64,000 bases of DNA from Arenicellales bacterium (GTDB taxonomy: Bacteria > Pseudomonadota > Gammaproteobacteria > Arenicellales > CBDCFT01): positions 92,779 to 156,778 of the forward strand of contig CBDCFT010000070.1 in assembly GCA_965216365.1 (NCBI GenBank), written 5' to 3'. This document shows positions 49,240 through 62,317 of this stretch, piece by piece. The first letter of the stretch is position 1, and every line of letters starts with the position of its first letter. Under the pieces are notes generated by a model. That model had not been told where the DNA came from, did not search any database, and saw only the letters and a list, made by a program, of their open reading frames with translations. Both the position numbers and the translations under genes were made by a program.

Positions 49240-50076
49240 GTGTGTCCTGCAAAAGTTACCGGCCCGGGGCAACGCGGCTGGATCATTCCTATTGGTGGTG
49301 GCGAGAAAAAAGTTCGCTCATCCACTATTTTGAACAGGTTTGTGCAACTATGCGGTGCCGGTGAGGCGCGTATTGCAGTAATTCCAACCGCCTCTCAATT
49401 AGACGATACCGGTGAACGTTATGACACGGTTTTTCGCGAATTAGGTGCCGGGCACGTCGATATCATCGATTTGGAAACGCGCGCGGATTGTGAGGACGCC
49501 AGGCGACTGGAGCTTTTAGAGCGGGCAAGCGGAATCTTTTTCACCGGCGGCAACCAGTTGCGACTGGCGACAATAACCGGAGGAACTCGCGCTTCGAGAG
49601 TTATCCGGCACGGTAATGCGAGAGGCATTCACGTCGCGGGCACATCGGCCGGAGCCGCGTTTGTATGCGAACACATGATTGCATTTGGGAAAGGAGGCCC
49701 GACACCTAAAGGCGGCATGGCGACGTTGTCGCCCGGACTCGGGCTGACCAATCGCGTTATCATTGACCAACACTTTCGCGAACGTGACCGACATGGCCGG
49801 CTGCTGACTGCGCTAGCTTACAATCCTTTTGCAACCGGAATCGGTGTTGATGAAAACACCGCTGCCTTTATTAGCCCCGACGATATTATTGAGGTGCTGG
49901 GGTCCGGCGCACTCACTGTTATCGATGTATCAGATCTGGAATATTCTTCAATGGCGGCAACTAAACAGGGAAAACCGGTCAGCTTGATTGGCGTGAAACT
50001 GCATATTCTGATCGAAGGTGGCCGCTACGACCTGACAACCCATATTGCACAATCCGGTACCGGTCAAACTGGATAG
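49240..50076 (+). CDS. cphB: Cyanophycinase (intracellular)
   Basis: IGGGE, IPTAS, FTGGNQLRL, AGTSAGA, IDQHF, GVDENT; upstream of cphA. Confidence 0.93.
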   Translation: MCPAKVTGPGQRGWIIPIGGGEKKVRSSTILNRFVQLCGAGEARIAVIPTASQLDDTGERYDTVFRELGAGHVDIIDLETRADCEDARRLELLERASGIFFTGGNQLRLATITGGTRASRVIRHGNARGIHVAGTSAGAAFVCEHMIAFGKGGPTPKGGMATLSPGLGLTNRVIIDQHFRERDRHGRLLTALAYNPFATGIGVDENTAAFISPDDIIEVLGSGALTVIDVSDLEYSSMAATKQGKPVSLIGVKLHILIEGGRYDLTTHIAQSGTGQTG

Positions 50077-50115: not shown

Positions 50116-52983
50116 ATGAAAATCCTAGAGACATCCGTATTCCGCGGGCCAAACATCTACGCCCTGTTTCCAGTCATCCGGCACCGGATAGACATCGGCA
50201 TTCTAGAGGAATGGCCGACCGGTCGGCTCGGTGCCGAATTTATCGATCCGTTACTCGAAGCGTTACCGGGCTTGCACGAACACGGGTGTTCCTACGGAGA
50301 ACCGGGTGGGTTCGTGCGCCGTCTGCGTGAAGATGAGGGCACCTGGATAGGTCACGTCTGGGAGCATGTTGCCCTCGAATTACAAAATGTGGCTGGGGCC
50401 AATGTCACTTTTGGCAAAACCCGTGGTGCCGGTGAAACCGGCATTTACAATATGATTTACGAATATGAGCAGGAGCAAGTGGGGTTACAAGCGGGTGAGC
50501 TCGCGATCAATCTTCTGCGACACCTTTTACCGGATGATTTGGTTGAAGCCGAACAGCGAATTGAAGACTTCAACTTCGACGAGGAACGCGACAGTTTTAT
50601 CCGTGCCGCGCAACGTCGTGCGCTGGGTCCCAGCACAGCTTCGCTTGTCAGAGCTGCGCGTGAACGCGACATCCCCTGGCTGCGCCTTAACGAATACAGC
50701 TTGATCCAACTAGGTCACGGGCGCTACCAGAAGCGTATCCAGGCGACCATTACCAGTGAAACACACTACATAGCGGTTGAACTCGCGTCGGACAAGGAAG
50801 CGACCAATAAAATCCTCGCCGACCTTGGCCTGCCCGTGCCACAACAACGCATGGTCTACGATCAAAAAAACGCGGTTCGAACAGCGGAACGCATCGGCTA
50901 TCCCGTCGTCATCAAGCCACTCAACGCGAACCATGGTCGCGGCATATCCGTTGGTGTAGAAGACCCGGATTCGGTCATAGCCGCCTTCGATTTCGCTCAG
51001 CAAAGCAACCGCAGTGGTCACGGAGTGATTATTGAATCGCTTATTCAAGGACTCGATCACCGTATGCTGGTAGTGAACGGCACACTGGTTGCGGTATCCA
51101 AACGGGTGCCGGGCCACGTGGTCGGCGACGGTAAACAAACGGTGGAACAACTCGTTGATGAGGTCAACTCCGATCCGCGTCGTGGCGTCGGACATGAAAA
51201 AGTGCTAACCCGTATCGAGCTGGATGCCAAGGCAATTCAACATCTGGAGGAACTGGGCTACACCAGGGGCACGGTTCCGCCTGCTGGTGAAGTGGTGTTT
51301 CTGCGTTCAACGGCCAACTTGTCGACAGGTGGGACGGCAATCGATGTTACTGATATCGTCCATCCCGACAACCGCGACATGGCGGTGCGCGCGGTCAAAG
51401 CGATCGGACTCGACATTGGCGGTGTCGATTTCCTGTCCGCGGATATTTCGAAATCATACAAAGAAAACGGCGCGGCAATTTGCGAGATAAATGCAGCACC
51501 GGGGTTTCGCATGCACGTCGCACCCAGCGAAGGGAAACCACGCGATGTTGCCAATGCGGTTATGGACATGTTGTTTCCGGTCAATGCGCCGAGTCGAATA
51601 CCGATCATCTCTATTACGGGTACGAATGGTAAAACTACCACCGCGCGGATGGTTGCGCACATCTACAAGTTGAGTGGCAATACGGTCGGATTAGCCACCA
51701 CCGATGGTGTTTATATAGATGGCAACCTGAGTGTTAAGGGCGACCTGACCGGCCCCATGGCGGCGCAAATGATATTGCGCGATCCCACCATTGATGCGGC
51801 AGTGCTTGAAACCGCCCGTGGTGGCTTGTTGCGGCGTGGTTTGGGTTATGAAGGATGCGATACCGGCGCCGTACTCAACATCGCTGCCGATCACCTTGGA
51901 TTGCGTGGCATTGATACGCTGGAAGAAATGGCACGAGTAAAACAGATTGTCGTAGAAGTAGCTAAAGACACCGCCGTACTCAACGCCGATGACGAGCTTT
52001 GCCTGCGCATGGCCGAACGTACCAAGGCGGAGAACCTGTGTTATGTGACGATGAACGCCGGTCATCCGTTAGTGCGTGAACACGTTCGCGCCGGCGGGCG
52101 TGCGGTCGTTTTAGAGCAGGGCATGAATGGGCAGATGATCACCATTTATGACAATAGCGCGCACATTCCATTGATGTGGACTCATCTGATCCCCGCCACG
52201 CTGGACGGTAAGGCGATGCACAACGTTCAGAACGCCTTGTTTGCGACTGCCATCTGTTTCAGCATGGGCAAGAGTCTGGAGGATATCCGTCAAGGTTTGC
52301 GCACCTTTGCCAGTTCCTACTTCCAGGCGCCGGGCAGGATGAATGTGTTTGACGAACACCCGTTTAAGGTCATTCTCGACTACGGGCACAACCCGTCTGC
52401 CATTGAAGCGATGTGCCGGCTGGTCGATCAGTTGGAGCCGGAGGGCAAACGCATTTGCGTGTTTACTTTGCCCGGTGACCGGCGCGACGAAGACATCGTC
52501 GAGGCCGCGCGAATCGTGACTGGTCATTTTGACCACTATATTTGCCGGCGTGACGATAATTTGCGCGGACGTGGCAACGAAGAGGTGCCGCTCATTCTGA
52601 AAACGGCGTTACTTGAGGGTGGCGTGGCGCAGGATGCAATCAGTGTTATTCCGGATGAAACCGAAGCTGTCGACGCCGCGTTACGCTTGGCTGATGCGGG
52701 CGATTTGATATTGATTTTTGGCGATAATATTTCGCGTTGCTGGAAGCAGATCATTTATTTTAATCGGCCGCAGGAAGGAATCGCGGAAACAGATGCTTCT
52801 GAACCAGAATCCGCCGTGGTTCAGATTGTGCAGACCGAAGATGCACCGGACGATCCGCTGGCCGAGGCGACCCCGGTACCCGATGCACCCGAGGTGCCTG
52901 AGTCCGTATTGCTGCAAGGCATGCGAATGGTGCGTGACAGTCGCGGTGTGCGATTGGCGAATGAGCCAGAAGAAGCAGACTGA
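50116..52983 (+). CDS. cphA: Cyanophycin synthetase CphA1
   Basis: N domain HGCS...GHVWEHVALELQ; ATP-grasp KPLNANHGRG, ANLSTGG, EINAAPG; Mur module ITGTNGKTT, ETARGG, DYGHN. Confidence 0.96.
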   Translation: MKILETSVFRGPNIYALFPVIRHRIDIGILEEWPTGRLGAEFIDPLLEALPGLHEHGCSYGEPGGFVRRLREDEGTWIGHVWEHVALELQNVAGANVTFGKTRGAGETGIYNMIYEYEQEQVGLQAGELAINLLRHLLPDDLVEAEQRIEDFNFDEERDSFIRAAQRRALGPSTASLVRAARERDIPWLRLNEYSLIQLGHGRYQKRIQATITSETHYIAVELASDKEATNKILADLGLPVPQQRMVYDQKNAVRTAERIGYPVVIKPLNANHGRGISVGVEDPDSVIAAFDFAQQSNRSGHGVIIESLIQGLDHRMLVVNGTLVAVSKRVPGHVVGDGKQTVEQLVDEVNSDPRRGVGHEKVLTRIELDAKAIQHLEELGYTRGTVPPAGEVVFLRSTANLSTGGTAIDVTDIVHPDNRDMAVRAVKAIGLDIGGVDFLSADISKSYKENGAAICEINAAPGFRMHVAPSEGKPRDVANAVMDMLFPVNAPSRIPIISITGTNGKTTTARMVAHIYKLSGNTVGLATTDGVYIDGNLSVKGDLTGPMAAQMILRDPTIDAAVLETARGGLLRRGLGYEGCDTGAVLNIAADHLGLRGIDTLEEMARVKQIVVEVAKDTAVLNADDELCLRMAERTKAENLCYVTMNAGHPLVREHVRAGGRAVVLEQGMNGQMITIYDNSAHIPLMWTHLIPATLDGKAMHNVQNALFATAICFSMGKSLEDIRQGLRTFASSYFQAPGRMNVFDEHPFKVILDYGHNPSAIEAMCRLVDQLEPEGKRICVFTLPGDRRDEDIVEAARIVTGHFDHYICRRDDNLRGRGNEEVPLILKTALLEGGVAQDAISVIPDETEAVDAALRLADAGDLILIFGDNISRCWKQIIYFNRPQEGIAETDASEPESAVVQIVQTEDAPDDPLAEATPVPDAPEVPESVLLQGMRMVRDSRGVRLANEPEEAD

Positions 52984-52993
52984 CACGTACGGT

Positions 52994-54712
52994 ATGAAAT
53001 TGACAAATGTACGCCGGTTAACCGGTGTCAATTTCTTTTCGAAACTGCCCGGTGCAGCCGCCGATGCTGCAGTGCCGGATGAACATAAAGGTTTTGCGGT
53101 CGCGATCTGGCGCAGATACATGCGGCAATTATTAGACGCCATTGGCTGGACGCATGAGAACATCGTCGCGCGGTCTTATCCCGGAGGGGTAAGTCTGATG
53201 ACGACGGCGCCGATCGATGCGCTGTACGCTGCGACCGACCTGATCGAGCGTGCCTGGGAGTTAACCTGTGACGAATTGCGTGGTCAATCCGATTTCAATA
53301 TTGATACCGTAGCTGAAGAAATCACCGACAAGATCAGTGCCGAAAGCAATTCAAATCTGATGGCGTTGGCGAACGCGGCTAGTACACGCGACATGACGTT
53401 TCTCGGTGACGATGGAAAGATTTCGCTGGGTCTTGGTGCCGGTTGCAAGGTTTGGCCGGATAACGATGCACCGCAGGAGGACGACATCGATTGGAGCGAA
53501 ATTCACGATGTCCCCGTTGCTATGGTCACGGGTACAAACGGCAAATCGACGACTGTGCGTTTAACCGCTGCCATCGGTGCTGCCGCGGGCTTGACCGTCG
53601 GCTTGTCGTCAAGTGACTGGGTGCGTGTTGGTAAGGAGATTATTGATGAAGGCGATTACTCCGGGCCTGCTGGCGCCCGTCTGGCCGTGCGCGACACACG
53701 CGTCAACCTTGCCATTATCGAAACGGCGCGTGGCGGTCTGATGCGACGCGGATTGCCACTACCCCAGACGGATGCTTGCCTCATTACCAATATCGCTGCC
53801 GATCATCTGGGTGATTATGGAATAACGGATGTCGCCGCCTTGGCGGATGCTAAATTTTTATTGACGCATGCTGTAAAGCCTGATGGCCGCATGGTGTTGA
53901 ATGGCGATGATCCTGAACTCGTCAGCCGCAGTGTCCGATTCGGCGGTGACATCACGTGGTACGGCCTGTCGCTGGACGAACAAGCGCTGAACTGTTGGAC
54001 CGATGCCGGTGGCCATGCGGTATTTGTAAAAGATGGCGTAATGACGCTTGCACGGCAGCGCGAACACATACCTGTTTTGCCGGTAGTGGATTTTGCACCT
54101 GCTTTACACGGCGCTGCGAAATTCAATATTTCCAATGCGCTGGGTGCGATTGCGCTGGCTTCGGCACTGGACTTGCCCGTATCGGCGATGACCCGGGCGT
54201 TGTCTGATTTCAAAGGGACGCCGGAGGAGAATCCGGGGCGCGGGAATTTTATGGAAATCGGTGGTGTTAATATTTTGATCGACTTTGCCCATAACCCGCA
54301 TGGTTTAGCCGCGTTGGTTGAGGCAACAAATGGGATATCTGCCAAACGACGACTGTTTCTGCTTAGTCAGGCTGGGGATCGCAGTGATGACGATATCCGT
54401 GAAATGACGCGAATCGTTTGGCGCGTTCAACCGGATATGATCATCGTTAAGGAACTCGAAAGTAAGTTGCGTGGACGAAAGGTCGGTGAAATACCAGCCA
54501 TCTTTTTAGATGAGCTGCGTGTGCTCGGCGTTTCCACAGATAGAATTATGCAGGCCGATGATGAAATGCAATCTGTTTATCAGGCGTTGGAGTGGGCGCA
54601 GCCCGGCGATTTTCTCGTATTGCTGGTTTACGACGATCGGAATCGGGTGCTCGCTTTGTTGCAGGATTTGAAAAACAAAAACTGGCAGGTCGGCGAGCGT
54701 ATAGATCGCTAA
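52994..54712 (+). CDS. CphA-like Mur-ligase protein lacking the ATP-grasp core
   Basis: CphA-like N-terminus (VRRLTGVN); VTGTNGKSTT follows about 180 aa in; ETARGG, ADHLG, DFAHNP, AGDRSD present; no ATP-grasp motifs. Confidence 0.85.
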   Translation: MKLTNVRRLTGVNFFSKLPGAAADAAVPDEHKGFAVAIWRRYMRQLLDAIGWTHENIVARSYPGGVSLMTTAPIDALYAATDLIERAWELTCDELRGQSDFNIDTVAEEITDKISAESNSNLMALANAASTRDMTFLGDDGKISLGLGAGCKVWPDNDAPQEDDIDWSEIHDVPVAMVTGTNGKSTTVRLTAAIGAAAGLTVGLSSSDWVRVGKEIIDEGDYSGPAGARLAVRDTRVNLAIIETARGGLMRRGLPLPQTDACLITNIAADHLGDYGITDVAALADAKFLLTHAVKPDGRMVLNGDDPELVSRSVRFGGDITWYGLSLDEQALNCWTDAGGHAVFVKDGVMTLARQREHIPVLPVVDFAPALHGAAKFNISNALGAIALASALDLPVSAMTRALSDFKGTPEENPGRGNFMEIGGVNILIDFAHNPHGLAALVEATNGISAKRRLFLLSQAGDRSDDDIREMTRIVWRVQPDMIIVKELESKLRGRKVGEIPAIFLDELRVLGVSTDRIMQADDEMQSVYQALEWAQPGDFLVLLVYDDRNRVLALLQDLKNKNWQVGERIDR

Positions 54713-54956: not shown

Positions 54957-55886
54957 TCACGTTTTGTACTGGCGAGCATTTAGTTCGTAAGTAGAGAAGA
55001 ACCTTTTGCTGTGATCAACGAATGTGCTTAGTAATCGCGTCGGACGTAACTTTCCTTGGCGAACGATTACGATGTCCATTGATGGAACTATGTCCTTGAT
55101 CTCTCGTTCTATCACATGGTTAGCGTCATAGCTCAGATTATGATGTGGGCGAGTGACAAGTACCGAAAATCCAGCGCCGTTAGCAACAAGTGCCCGAACT
55201 GTTTCGAATGATGGCGAACGCAAACTGATTTGCGGGCTTAGTCCCTTGCTTTCGAATAAGGCGGAGAAGTATTCGCGGCTGCGTGGTAAATCCAATAACA
55301 CCATTGGATATCGAGCAAGTTGCTTTAATCGTAGGGCGCTTTTTTCAACGAGCGGGTGTTCTGCAGGGAGTATCACGTAAGGTCTTAAACTCGCGAGTGG
55401 TTCCAATTCGAGTGCAGGGGGTACATCAAGCTTATACACGATGACAACATCGTATCGGTTGCCCTCTAAGCCCGCAATGAGGGTCTCCGTATTTTCTTCA
55501 TAGAGCTGTATTTCGACATCAGGGTAGTGTTTTAGAAACTGCGTGACTAGCGCCGGGATATACATAGACGCGATTGGCCCGAAACAACCGATGTGCAAAC
55601 GACCTCGCATTTGTTTGCCCAACCCTAGCGCGTTTTGACGGAAGTCTTCGGTATGGGCCAATAAACCATTAACCTCGGCGAATACACGTCCGCCGGCGGA
55701 AGTTAACGACACGCCCTGTGCGTGATGTCGCACAAACAATTGAACGTTTAGGGCATTTTCGAGCTTGGCGATAGCCGCAGAAATCGATGGTTGTGAAATA
55801 TGCAGCTCACGTGCGGCAACGGCAAGGCTGCCGGATTCGGCGACTTTAGCGAAGTATTCAAGTTGTTTGAGTGAAAAATTAAACAA
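54957..55886 (-). CDS. LysR family transcriptional regulator
   Basis: QLEYF...AARELHISQPSIS HTH; effector domain with PMVLLDLPRSREYF. Confidence 0.95.
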   Translation of the reverse strand: MFNFSLKQLEYFAKVAESGSLAVAARELHISQPSISAAIAKLENALNVQLFVRHHAQGVSLTSAGGRVFAEVNGLLAHTEDFRQNALGLGKQMRGRLHIGCFGPIASMYIPALVTQFLKHYPDVEIQLYEENTETLIAGLEGNRYDVVIVYKLDVPPALELEPLASLRPYVILPAEHPLVEKSALRLKQLARYPMVLLDLPRSREYFSALFESKGLSPQISLRSPSFETVRALVANGAGFSVLVTRPHHNLSYDANHVIEREIKDIVPSMDIVIVRQGKLRPTRLLSTFVDHSKRFFSTYELNARQYKT

Positions 55887-55895
55887 GTTAAAAAC

Positions 55896-55928
55896 TATCT
55901 AAATATAAGATAAATAATATTTTATCTT
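55896..55928. promoter_or_regulatory. LysR-type T-N11-A box with an overlapping palindrome
   Basis: TATCT-N7-AGATA (55896-55912) and AAGATAAA-N6-TTTATCTT (55907-55928) in the divergent promoter. Confidence 0.6.
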
Positions 55929-55983
55929 CTATCGGGTCATATGCAAAATTAATACTTAATTCACCTGATACCTGGAGACGAGG

Positions 55984-57435
55984 ATGCTTAAAACCGGCGA
56001 CGAATACCGTGAATCAATACGTGATGGGCGCGAAGTATGGATTGACGACGAACGTGTTGAGGATGTGCCTTCGCACCCGGCATTTAAGCCGATTGTTGAT
56101 ATTCGCGCACGTATCTACGATATGGCGCACGAATCCAGGTATCGTGACACCATGAGTTACCTTGATGGTGACGAACGATTTGCCATCGGTTTGAAGCTAC
56201 CAAAGACACAGGAGGATTGGGCGCTCAAACGCGAATCGGTAGCAACGGTGATGAGAGATATCGGTGGTGTAGTGACCCGTGTTGGCGACGAGACAGCAGG
56301 TGAAATGTGGTCGTTGTATGATGGCAGCGATATGCTGGCGGAGGTTGACCCACGGTTTAGTGAGAATATCGCTAGACATATTGATAAAGTCATTGTCAGC
56401 GATACGTTTCATGTATCGGCTAATACCGATCCCAAGGGTGATCGATCTAAACGGCCACAAGATCAAGATCCGGACATGTTGTTGCACGCGGTTAAAGAAA
56501 CCGACGCTGGAATTGTGGTACGCGGTGCAAAATTCGAAACGGCTGCTGCTTATGCGAATCAGGCGTTTGTAAAACCGACCATTGCCAACTGGGGTGACGC
56601 CAAACTTTCCGACTATGCTGTGGGATTTATATGCCCAATGAATGCTCGAGGATTGAAGCATATCTGTCGCAGTGGGTTTGCTGGAGTAAAAAGACAGGAG
56701 GACTACCCACTCAGTAACGGTTTTGATGAGGTCGATACATTGTTGATTTTCGATAATGTCTTGATTCCCTGGGAAGATGTATTGTTCTACCAACACACGA
56801 AAGCAGCCTCCTTCATTCGAGGAACGCTGCATCGCTATAGCGCCTATGCGTTTGTGTTACGCATCTTACATATTGCAGATCTGATGATTGGAACTGCATT
56901 ATTCAATGTCCGCCAGACCGGCCTGGATAACCAGCCTGCCGTGAGGGAAAAAATCGCACAGCTTGTGTGTTACCGCGAGGGTATTAATGCACATTTAACG
57001 GCAGCGATCGCCACCGCAGAACGAAGCCCACGTGATTTGCTCATGCCAAACCAATCGTTACTCTATACGGGTAGAGTACTCGCCTGTAGTCAATTACCGG
57101 CGATGGTTCATTTGGCACGTGAGCTGTGCGGTGGTCAGGTATGTGTAACACCAAATGCAGCGGCCTTTGAAGGGCAAGGGTCGAGCGAATGGCTGCAGAA
57201 GTACTACAACATTAATGAATTTTGGAACGCTACCGACCGACGGAAATTACTCGCGTTTGGTCGAGATTTACTTAACTCTGACTATGCCGGTCACAAAATA
57301 ACGTTCCAACTCTTCGCACAATCTCCACCGTTCGCTCATCTAAATGCCGTGTATAACAATTTTGACTTTTCAGAGACTTTGGGGTTTGTACGAACTGCCG
57401 CGGGTCTCTCCGACAAAGTTATGCAGCAAAAATAA
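55984..57435 (+). CDS. 4-hydroxyphenylacetate 3-hydroxylase family flavin monooxygenase (oxygenase component)
   Basis: TGDEYRESIRDGREVW, DPKGDRS, GIVVRGAK, FDE.D...IFDNVLIPWE. Confidence 0.88.
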   Translation: MLKTGDEYRESIRDGREVWIDDERVEDVPSHPAFKPIVDIRARIYDMAHESRYRDTMSYLDGDERFAIGLKLPKTQEDWALKRESVATVMRDIGGVVTRVGDETAGEMWSLYDGSDMLAEVDPRFSENIARHIDKVIVSDTFHVSANTDPKGDRSKRPQDQDPDMLLHAVKETDAGIVVRGAKFETAAAYANQAFVKPTIANWGDAKLSDYAVGFICPMNARGLKHICRSGFAGVKRQEDYPLSNGFDEVDTLLIFDNVLIPWEDVLFYQHTKAASFIRGTLHRYSAYAFVLRILHIADLMIGTALFNVRQTGLDNQPAVREKIAQLVCYREGINAHLTAAIATAERSPRDLLMPNQSLLYTGRVLACSQLPAMVHLARELCGGQVCVTPNAAAFEGQGSSEWLQKYYNINEFWNATDRRKLLAFGRDLLNSDYAGHKITFQLFAQSPPFAHLNAVYNNFDFSETLGFVRTAAGLSDKVMQQK

Positions 57436-61329: not shown

Positions 61330-62210
61330 TTATTCCGGATCGTTCGGTTCGAACACTCGTACCTGCGCCGGTTTTGTGGCTGACACCGCCGCTCGTTTCA
61401 TGCCTTGTGAGTTAAAAGGCATGACGAAATGACCTGATTTGTCGATTGCGATAAGGCCTCCATCCCCTCCAAGTTGTTTTACTTGCGCTAGTGTCGCCTG
61501 CGCCGCCGATTCAAGCGATGCATCGCCGTAACGCACGTGGGCGGCAACATCGTATGCCGCGTTGGTTCTGATAAACGCTTCGCCAATGCCGGTACAGGAT
61601 ACGGCGACCAGATCGTCCGCCCATGTACCTGCACCAATCAGGGGAGTGTCGCCTACGCGGCCGGGTCGTTTGTTGAACGTGCCGCCGGTAGACGTTGCTG
61701 CGGCAAGTCTGCCGTTTGTATCCAGCGCAACAGCGCCGACGGTGCCGTGGCCGGCCGCAGACTCGCCTGAACCGTGATCTTTATGTTCAATATAATAAGT
61801 GTCTGCATTAGTTACCGCATCCAGACCATTGGCCAGCGCGAAATCCGGGCGCCTTGAGCGGTCAGCATAACGTGCCTGCCATCTTCCAATACGCAAAGCG
61901 CGGCTTTTACCGGATTCACGATATTACACACTGCGGATACCGCACCGGCTTTGCGTGTACTGCCGTCCATGATGCTCGCGTCGAGTTCCACGATGCCGTC
62001 GGTATTAGGTGCTGACCCTTTGCCCGCGACATACAGGCCTGAAACCTCCATCGCAGCAACCATCTCAGTAACAGTTTCCAACGCGCTCTGACCGGACTTC
62101 AACATTTGTTCTCCATTAGAGATTAGTTCAGCCAAGTGTTGGCGTTGTTGCGCGTAGTCGATGTGAGGCTGGGCGCCCGCGCCGCCGTGAATTGCCAGAG
62201 TGTAAGTCAT
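61330..62210 (-). pseudogene. iaaA: Isoaspartyl peptidase/L-asparaginase with one -1 frameshift near 61847 (probably an error)
   Basis: AIHGGAG, ELDASIMDG / GTVGAVA, ATSTGG, GRVGDTP, SCTGIGE. Confidence 0.85.
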
Positions 62211-62317
62211 CGTCAGTGTAATGGATTTGCAGCGTGCGGAAACCACACCGATTTTAGAAGAAGAAAGCGATTGCAGCGTTTTGCTATGGACGTCATTGCG
62301 AGTATTTTCCAGTACTC

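Follow-up and report, generated by a model that had tools for sequence, protein, structure and literature searches.

Cyanophycin synthesis has been described as the work of CphA1 alone, or of CphA2 where dipeptides are recycled. CphA1 (TIGR02068; solved in 7lg5/7lgj/7lgq, 7wac-7waf, 7lgm, and 7lgn) combines an N domain, an ATP-grasp G domain that extends the poly-Asp backbone, and a Mur-type M domain. CphA2, as outlined in passages of PMC10273328, has retained N and G, its M domain being truncated and inactive. Here, we analyzed 64,000 nucleotides (nt) from an Arenicellales bacterium (contig CBDCFT010000070.1, positions 92,779 to 156,778), a stretch referred to below as the window, in which a gene encoding 572 amino acids (aa) follows cphA closely. 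Its product, which we call CphX, is predicted to be a shorter CphA relative that keeps the side-chain-adding half only, and it represents a third, widespread protein of the CphA family. We propose, with moderate confidence, that CphX is an ATP-dependent ligase acting in trans on the Asp beta-carboxyls of the cyanophycin made by its partner synthetase. CphX points to an unstudied step, i.e., side-chain completion, a change of composition, or priming, and it bears on nitrogen storage in marine and soil bacteria.

Domain architecture and ligase site of CphX

An earlier reading made from the letters only (the sequence-only reading) had described a 572-aa gene, 10 nt past the cphA stop, as a CphA paralogue with an intact Mur module and no ATP-grasp core. 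The open reading frame (ORF) and its coordinates bear this out, and the motifs named there are all present in the translation (GTNGKS at residues 180-185, ETARGG at 243-248, ADHLG at 269-273, and DFAHNP at 430-435). Pfam returned Mur_ligase_M (residues 178-389; 63.8 bits, cut-off 24) and Mur_ligase_C (residues 415-543; 40.5 bits, cut-off 28.4) and no other domain. Both scores exceed the Pfam gathering scores, which places CphX in the Mur ligase superfamily, and no ATP-grasp family of Pfam matched at E<=0.01, in line with the absence claimed before. The CphA1 model TIGR02068 scored 329.6 bits, below its cut-off of 850, and aligned CphX residues 171-558 to model positions 477-860 only. BLASTP paired residues 173-552 with residues 495-875 of the neighboring CphA (32% identity, E 1e-45), and the closest solved relatives were CphA1 M domains, with 7lg5 at E 2e-51 (phmmer). 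MurE-type models reached at most 77.5 bits against cut-offs of 257-1023, and Pfam detected no Mur N-terminal UDP-MurNAc-binding domain. CphX thus shares with Mur ligases (MurC-F, especially MurE; MurT, FolC) the Mur_ligase_M/C pair, the P-loop, the Mg-binding Glu, the DH pair, and the Arg and His of the C-terminal domain. It differs from them by having no detected UDP-binding N domain, by staying far below the MurE cut-offs, and by its context, which is cyanophycin and not the cell wall. The segments of CphX are as follows.

52994..53455, + strand: residues 1-154, predicted N-like head with a remnant of the first G-core segment and no HxxEH (hhalign, conserved head residues)
53456..53509, + strand: residues 155-172, linker before the M domain, with P160 and W167 invariant in an alignment of 32 family members (alignment A1)
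53510..54223, + strand: residues 173-410, M-core (Mur_ligase_M), with the P-loop GTNGKS, E243, D270-H271, and K287 (Pfam and residue mapping)
54224..54712, + strand: residues 411-572 and stop, M-lid (Mur_ligase_C), with R416 and H433, the latter in DFAHNP (Pfam and conservation)

Ligase-site residues were mapped through the phmmer alignment to SuCphA1 (7lg5, offset 315). The ATP/Mg residues of TeCphA1 given in a passage of PMC9427784 (N497, K499, T500, T522, E558, F692, R731, and H748) correspond in CphX to N182, K184, S185, S207, E243, F377, R416, and H433, and the M-inactivating pair of SuCphA1, D585/H586 according to part of PMC9262961, corresponds to D270/H271. N182, K184, S185, E243, D270, H271, K287, R416, and H433 are invariant in alignment A1. 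All of these except S185 are also kept in 62 of 62 full-length homologues from other phyla, a set independent of A1 that was drawn from the motif-seeded loci introduced below; in this set, position 185 is S or T, 207 is T, and 377 is H or Y. K287 is an "AAK"-type Lys, which may be equivalent to the carbamylated Lys of MurD-F. CphX therefore carries the elements that characterize the M domain of CphA1, namely the P-loop Lys, the Mg-binding Glu, the D-H pair, and the lid Arg and His.

That all mappable ATP, Mg, and catalytic residues of CphA1 are kept favors an active ligase over a dead scaffold, and the conservation is the pattern one would expect of an active enzyme with a functional head, unlike the one in CphA2, whose M domain is truncated and inactive. 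We accordingly give little credence to a purely non-catalytic subunit with a vestigial ligase site, in other words a regulator, chaperone, or scaffold whose sole function is to bind CphA or cyanophycin granules. CphX does evolve faster than CphA, and CphA2 is a case of a CphA-family M domain persisting without activity, as described in part of PMC10273328, but there the inactive domain is truncated whereas that of CphX is complete, and eight catalytic or ATP residues are invariant in 32 plus 62 sequences across phyla. The sequence-only reading had called CphX a mirror image of CphA2. As an analogy this is fair, both being CphA-family proteins minus one of two ligase activities in genomes that also encode CphA1; it does not extend to a relationship, CphA2 being G plus a truncated M according to the same passages. 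CphX has a complete M and no G domain and could not polymerize by the CphA2 route.

The head of CphX was not recognized by conventional searches. Pfam gave nothing for it at E<=10, including Cyanophycin_syn (PF18921), BLASTP found no significant match to the neighboring CphA (E 0.54), and a 19-sequence head profile run against PDB sequences at E<=10 matched no CphA1, yielding only chance metallo-beta-lactamase matches (E 0.25). When the N-terminal 172 residues were compared by phmmer with 1.84 billion representatives, 454 (each standing for a 50%-identity cluster) matched at E<=1e-3 and 241 at E<=1e-10; the best 150 of the 454 were proteins of ~552-645 aa or shorter fragments, none of CphA1 length (~900 aa). 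The head is therefore family-specific at the sequence level. Profile-profile comparison by hhalign, in contrast, placed CphX 1-154 and CphA 1-206 in one colinear alignment, running from the first residue of either protein (score 33.1, E 1.9e-4, probability 47%). This score was never attained in 150 column shuffles (mean 13.5, standard deviation 2.4, maximum 23.7; reversed, 15.4). Hence, the CphA-like N-terminus of the sequence-only reading is borne out in part, as a weak profile-level similarity and not at the level of Pfam, BLASTP, the PDB profile search, or phmmer. The short segment that the same reading had matched to the start of the G domain lies inside this alignment and is retained (CphX 98-149 versus CphA 149-203, E 1.3e-3 alone). 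A global hhalign run of the head was set aside as a forced, uninformative alignment.

The peptidase site of the window CphA (C58-x21-H80xxE83H84) is missing from CphX, as claimed before: HxxEH does not occur in CphX residues 1-172, and the stretch with the HxxEH helix of CphA falls in an alignment gap. Head residues R7, R8, G11, G65, and D75 are kept in all 62 independent full-length homologues. On the profile evidence, the head is probably a reduced CphA N domain followed by the first strand-helix of the G-core. A search with the N domain among proteins longer than 1001 aa turned up no fused form, which is weak evidence. Two CphX copies, at loci L007 and L014, have long upstream ORF extensions without a Pfam domain, which were taken as ORF-calling artefacts.

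Compared with CphA1, CphX thus has a homologous M-core and M-lid with all mapped ATP, Mg, and catalytic residues, is encoded in the same operon, and shows a weak colinear profile similarity to the N domain and first G-core segment; it differs by a shorter head devoid of Cx19-21HxxEH and by the absence of the backbone-extending G domain. The chain that the M site of CphA1 takes as its substrate ends in an Arg-free Asp and sits between the N domain and the M-core (a passage of PMC9427784), and an N-like head, M-core, and M-lid would therefore make up a complete side-chain-ligating half. CphX would be a stand-alone, catalytically competent M half, in which a reduced, polymer-holding head is fused to a complete Mur-type ligase. 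Co-transcribed with cphB and cphA, it would bind ATP-Mg at its P-loop, phosphorylate a free Asp beta-carboxylate of cyanophycin or of the Arg-free intermediate (beta-Asp-Arg)n-Asp from the partner CphA1, and then join an amine to this Asp, L-Arg being the likeliest candidate and another basic amino acid a possible one. Its role would be that of an additional side-chain ligase, finishing or modifying the polymer but unable to build the backbone. As possible activities, the sequence-only reading had offered the addition of Arg or another amine to Asp beta-carboxyls, the making of beta-Asp-X dipeptides, and hetero-oligomers with CphA.

Several points weigh against this proposal. The M domain of the partner CphA appears intact (GTNGKT, ETARGG, ADHLG, and DYGHNP), and a second Arg ligase looks redundant. 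The N-like fold, the substrate cleft, and the ligase role of CphX are predictions from sequence. CphX also diverges faster than its partner (mean p-distance, 0.59 versus 0.36). Finally, several segments conserved among the M domains of CphA1 are different in CphX ("IPAT.eG" versus "v.DF.P.lGG" and "DD..RGR" versus "...lRGR"), which may mean that its carboxylate or amine substrate is not the one used by CphA1. Systematic differences of this kind, beside the RGR loop and before the NxxNAL motif, would suit an enzyme that adds a non-Arg amine (Lys, ornithine, citrulline, or similar) to Asp beta-carboxyls and thereby yields a mixed, more soluble polymer; natural CphA1 products do hold some Lys, which alters solubility (part of bioRxiv 10.1101/2023.01.09.523336). 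We regard such a composition modifier as unlikely: E487, the sole acidic residue invariant in the alphaproteobacterial subset, is kept in 21 of 62 homologues family-wide. The intact ligase site could also serve to make beta-Asp-Arg or short primers of the (beta-Asp-Arg)-Asp type from free Asp or short Asp peptides, CphA1 requiring a primer of at least (beta-Asp-Arg)-Asp according to a passage of PMC9262961. This role appears quite improbable, since the peptidase motif found in all partner CphAs already solves priming and the conserved N-like head suggests a polymer substrate over a free amino acid.

Linkage to cphA, distribution, and ancestry of the family

The gene for CphX belongs to a cphB-cphA-X operon composed of the following genes.

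49240..50076, + strand: cphB, cyanophycinase, first gene of the operon (TIGR02069, 239.1 bits, cut-off 126.6; Peptidase_S51, 87 bits)
50116..52983, + strand: cphA, cyanophycin synthetase 1, 955 aa, full-length with N, ATP-grasp G, and Mur-type M domains (TIGR02068, 1157.9 bits, cut-off 850)
52994-54712, + strand: CphX gene, 572 aa, intact ORF ending in a stop, 10 nt 3' of cphA

Pfam matches of the window CphA comprise Cyanophycin_syn, eight ATP-grasp-type families, and Mur_ligase_M/C, and its closest solved chains are 7lgn and 7lgm. Homologues of 570-590 aa align from the annotated ATG of CphX at 99-100% coverage, so the start call is right. The genome that contains the window has a single copy each of cphA and of the CphX gene. 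A terminator and promoter scan of the locus gave nothing decisive; its terminator-like part picked up a near-perfect palindrome, ACGCCGGTTAACCGGTGT followed by CAATTTCTTT, at window positions 53011-53028 (+ strand), 17 nt into the CphX gene.

The family, defined as proteins of about 555-620 aa with an N-like head and an M domain encoded beside cphA, includes the window gene and spans at least eight phyla, with 50%-identity clusters numbering in the hundreds. Its members occur in Alpha- and Gammaproteobacteria, Bacteroidota/Rhodothermales, Planctomycetota, Gemmatimonadota, Acidobacteriota, Myxococcota, and Eisenbacteria. The 120 homologues listed among 4063 matches are 503-590 aa long and 53-68% identical to CphX, with 87-100% coverage (99-100% in all but four). 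As a member of this large conserved family, CphX is not the genome-specific decayed duplicate that the sequence-only reading had named as a refuting outcome. A profile scan with one genome per species revealed 19 loci with full-length relatives, in Alpha- and Gammaproteobacteria, Bacteroidota, Planctomycetota, Gemmatimonadota, Acidobacteriota, and Myxococcota (Plesiocystis pacifica SIR-1). At 17 of these, a full-length cphA immediately precedes the gene; the two deviating loci are L014, with CphX 2 kb downstream of cphA, and L007, with the two genes convergent and 330 nt apart.

Among 41 genomes of the order to which the window belongs, seven encode a full-length CphX, in each case with cphA directly upstream, and three have cphA without CphX. 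Fragments with an internal stop were found in two more genomes (locus L094, G017:C1:7500-13300, residues 91-563; and G034:C3:3276-4112, residues 283-562); these broken copies are the only ones without an adjacent cphA, and in G017 no cphA occurs within 4 kb upstream of the fragment. Genome G001 (97% complete, one contig), the only other genome of the same genus searched, has neither cphA nor CphX; the operon is therefore accessory, and its genes were probably acquired or lost together. Of 300 genomes sampled evenly across the class, 5 have the CphX head domain, and the three new ones have cphA directly upstream. CphX is thus rare per genome yet widespread, patchy, and tied to cphA. Across 73 motif-seeded loci (see below), the median gap between cphA and CphX is 15 nt, with 67 gaps within 100 nt and 71 within 500 nt. 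Two Rhodothermales/Rubricoccaceae metagenome-assembled genomes (MAGs) have wider gaps, of 1.1 kb (L135:3144-4278) and 2.5 kb (L142:2763-4984), behind an inserted antiporter gene. The L142 insert consists of a Na+/H+ antiporter family gene and a DUF1508 gene on the opposite strand, and the CphA tails at both loci read ...GVRLV[RQ]DEEAD.

M-domain phylogenies were built by maximum likelihood, with other Mur ligases as the root, in a quick and a careful version, the latter leaving out 15 of the 31 database rows. CphX forms one clade in both (50 rows with a Shimodaira-Hasegawa-like approximate likelihood ratio test [SH-aLRT] support of 99 in the quick tree; 35 rows with bootstrap 96 and SH-aLRT 99 in the careful one). 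So does CphA (27 rows, SH-aLRT 93; 99/93 in the careful tree), and so does a second, Chloroflexota-type family (four rows, 100; 100/100 in the careful tree), the branching order of the three groups being settled by neither tree. Grouping the M domains of CphX and partner CphAs as one clade was rejected by the approximately unbiased (AU) test (delta log-likelihood 63.6, p 0.0039), for a group that was named after the tree had been seen. CphX is therefore no recent partial duplicate of the neighboring CphA. Partner CphAs likewise form one clade (19 rows, SH-aLRT 99) and are 59-85% identical to the window CphA, as against 44-49% for CphAs without a partner. Distances among CphX and among partner CphAs are correlated (Mantel r 0.70, 24 pairs; 0 of 2000 permutations as high), and the pair therefore travels as a unit. 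In terms of sequence evolution, CphX is apparently an old, separate lineage under selection.

These data make it extremely unlikely that CphX is a decaying cphA duplicate or a cell-wall Mur ligase that lies here by chance. Database names speak for this reading, the homologues that carry one being labeled "Mur ligase family protein" or "UDP-N-acetylmuramyl tripeptide synthase," besides "cyanophycin synthetase." A look-up of homologue P0056 retrieved "Mur ligase family protein" clusters only, and no structure. However, the intact frame, the full-length conservation of the family, and the strict synteny with cphA contradict either origin. Moreover, the CphA M domain is by far the best family match (329.6 bits versus <=77.5 for MurE-type models), and the AU test rejects a recent duplication of the partner M domain.

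The second family ("type 2") offers a further comparison. Its members have 541-600 aa, Mur_ligase_M and Mur_ligase_C, no ATP-grasp domain, a possible N domain, and a location beside cphA in Chloroflexota, Methylomirabilota, and a Thermohalobaculum MAG.

L023:2667-4469, - strand: member of the second family
L025:1884-3509, - strand: member of the second family
L027:8299-9999, - strand: member of the second family
L029:5260-6966, - strand: member of the second family

Their N-terminus, LRVLDGPNRFFTRPAV, resembles the start of the CphA N domain and is intermediate between those of CphA (VFRGPNIYALFPV) and CphX (VRRLTGVNFFSKLPGA). They differ from CphX in forming their own clade, in being convergent to cphA and not downstream of it, and in having partner CphAs without the DERGVR tail described next.

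A C-terminal peptide of CphX-paired synthetases

CphAs of the partner clade run ~70 residues past the M domain, through a variable linker into a conserved end, represented in the window by the following segments.

52771..52929, + strand: CphA residues 886-938, variable Pro/Ala/Glu/Asp-rich linker after the M domain, differing in length and sequence among partner-clade CphAs
52930..52980, + strand: CphA residues 939-955, VRDSRGVRLANEPEEAD-COOH, conserved C-terminal motif of CphX-paired CphA1s (alignments)

The motif reads [VI]xD[ED][RS]GVR[LIV], followed by 7-10 mostly acidic residues and a final Asp. In alignment A2 (18 tails), D31, R33, G34, V35, and the final D are invariant. This tail is present in 27 of 28 CphA1s that have a CphX (18 of 19 in the first set, 6 of 6 in related genomes, and 3 of 3 divergent class members, in which R is replaced by S) and in none of nine other CphA1s (eight of the first set and that of G019). 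The sole CphX-paired CphA without it is that of L007, the one convergent pair. Conversely, G029 (locus L093, G029:C4:412800-417200) encodes a partner-clade CphA, 60% identical to that of the window, with a degenerate tail, VDKRGARLSKSDAFEDD, and a profile search of this genome (99% complete) for CphX came back empty; the tail may have decayed after loss of CphX. The motif occurs in no solved CphA1, and a protein-collection search with the tail region, which depends on shared words, retrieved 13 close relatives only.

For a reciprocal scan, genomes were seeded with the core tail pattern, which does not include the terminus; 170 stretches were confirmed, and the best 80 loci were examined. The pattern marks the end of a CphA at 79 of these 80. 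Every one of the 80 tails has Asp as its last residue, 7-10 residues after GVR, and at 73 loci a CphX N-terminus follows downstream. The others are L105, with CphX residues 134-564 in a frameshifted assembly, three loci with less than 260 nt of downstream sequence, and L157, L158, and L166, at which no CphX was found within 1.3-3.0 kb downstream of the tail. Because tail and CphX are both traits of one CphA clade, their association may rest on few independent events. The only informative exceptions, L007 and G029, both point towards a coupling of tail and CphX.

The motif and its correlation with CphX are new here. Neither the tail motif nor the CphX architecture was found described in the full-text literature, whose coverage did not extend to Fuser and Steinbuchel 2007, Sharon et al. 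2021, or supplements such as Table S2 and Fig. S3 of PMC3646047, which may list the family; this agrees with the sequence-only reading, which knew of no characterization. The architecture is unmentioned in the searched passages of a 2023 survey of cyanophycin gene clusters (PMC10206079), and part of the Octadecabacter paper (PMC3646047) cites the groups of "cyanophycin ligases and ligase-like proteins" of Fuser and Steinbuchel 2007.

The tail itself might be the substrate, with CphX ligating an amino acid (e.g., Arg) onto the final Asp of the partner C-terminal peptide. The tethered beta-Asp-Arg-like primer would then be extended by the G and M domains and later freed by the N-domain peptidase. 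A final Asp in 80 of 80 motif-seeded tails even though it lies outside the search pattern, its position 7-10 residues after GVR, the acidic end, and the long variable linker before the motif are as this scheme would have it, and so are the occurrence of the tail in 27 of 28 CphAs with CphX against none of nine without and the primer-releasing HxxEH site kept in all partner CphAs. Mur ligases act on peptide C-terminal carboxylates. RimK, an ATP-grasp enzyme, extends the acidic C-terminus of ribosomal protein S6, a likeness that concerns this scheme only, in that either ligase would have a partner protein whose conserved C-terminus is acidic; CphX differs in being Mur-type and not ATP-grasp, and the CphA tail is known here from sequence alone. 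A terminal Asp with free alpha- and beta-carboxylates is also the target of the CphA1 M site, as described in a passage of PMC9427784. We still consider ligation to the tail unlikely. A contact between tail and CphX is conjecture, and the co-occurrence of two traits of one monophyletic CphA clade may go back to a single ancestral event. Furthermore, partner CphAs have the primer-generating peptidase site, which would make them primer-independent according to part of PMC9262961. The full protein-priming version, in which CphX binds the DERGVR core and couples Arg to the last Asp, so that the tail of the synthetase itself is where synthesis begins and the N-domain peptidase eventually releases the chain, is a shade more doubtful. 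Such priming would be analogous to that of glycogen by glycogenin.

If CphX instead acts on the polymer, as we propose, the peptide may still be where it contacts CphA. A complex prediction of CphX (from A1) with the CphA tail (from A2) scored 0.00, below the mark, and counts neither for nor against binding. With ~17 residues, the motif is a cheap and concrete experimental handle, and partner-clade CphA1s expressed in production hosts may depend on CphX or the tail to reach full activity or a particular polymer composition.

A separate feature of the partner synthetases concerns their N-domain metallopeptidase motif (window positions 50287-50367, CphA residues 58-84), which has the form Cx21HxxEH in 18 of 19 CphX-paired CphAs. 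The Cx21 spacing stems from a two-residue insert (ED/GE); the CphA of L018a and eight CphAs without CphX show the published Cx19.

Neighboring genes

Directly past the operon, at window positions 54957-57435, a LysR-family regulator gene (- strand) is divergent from a gene for an HpaB-like 4-hydroxyphenylacetate 3-hydroxylase-type oxygenase (+ strand), with no apparent link to cyanophycin. No IadA was detected at its cut-off in the genome of the window. A gene for an IaaA-type isoaspartyl peptidase (Asparaginase_2, PF01112; 168 and 111 bits) lies 6.6 kb downstream of the operon, at 61330-62246 (- strand), and is broken into two overlapping reading frames (61812-62246 and 61330-61896). The split, in an enzyme expected to finish cyanophycin breakdown, reflects either a frameshift or an assembly error.

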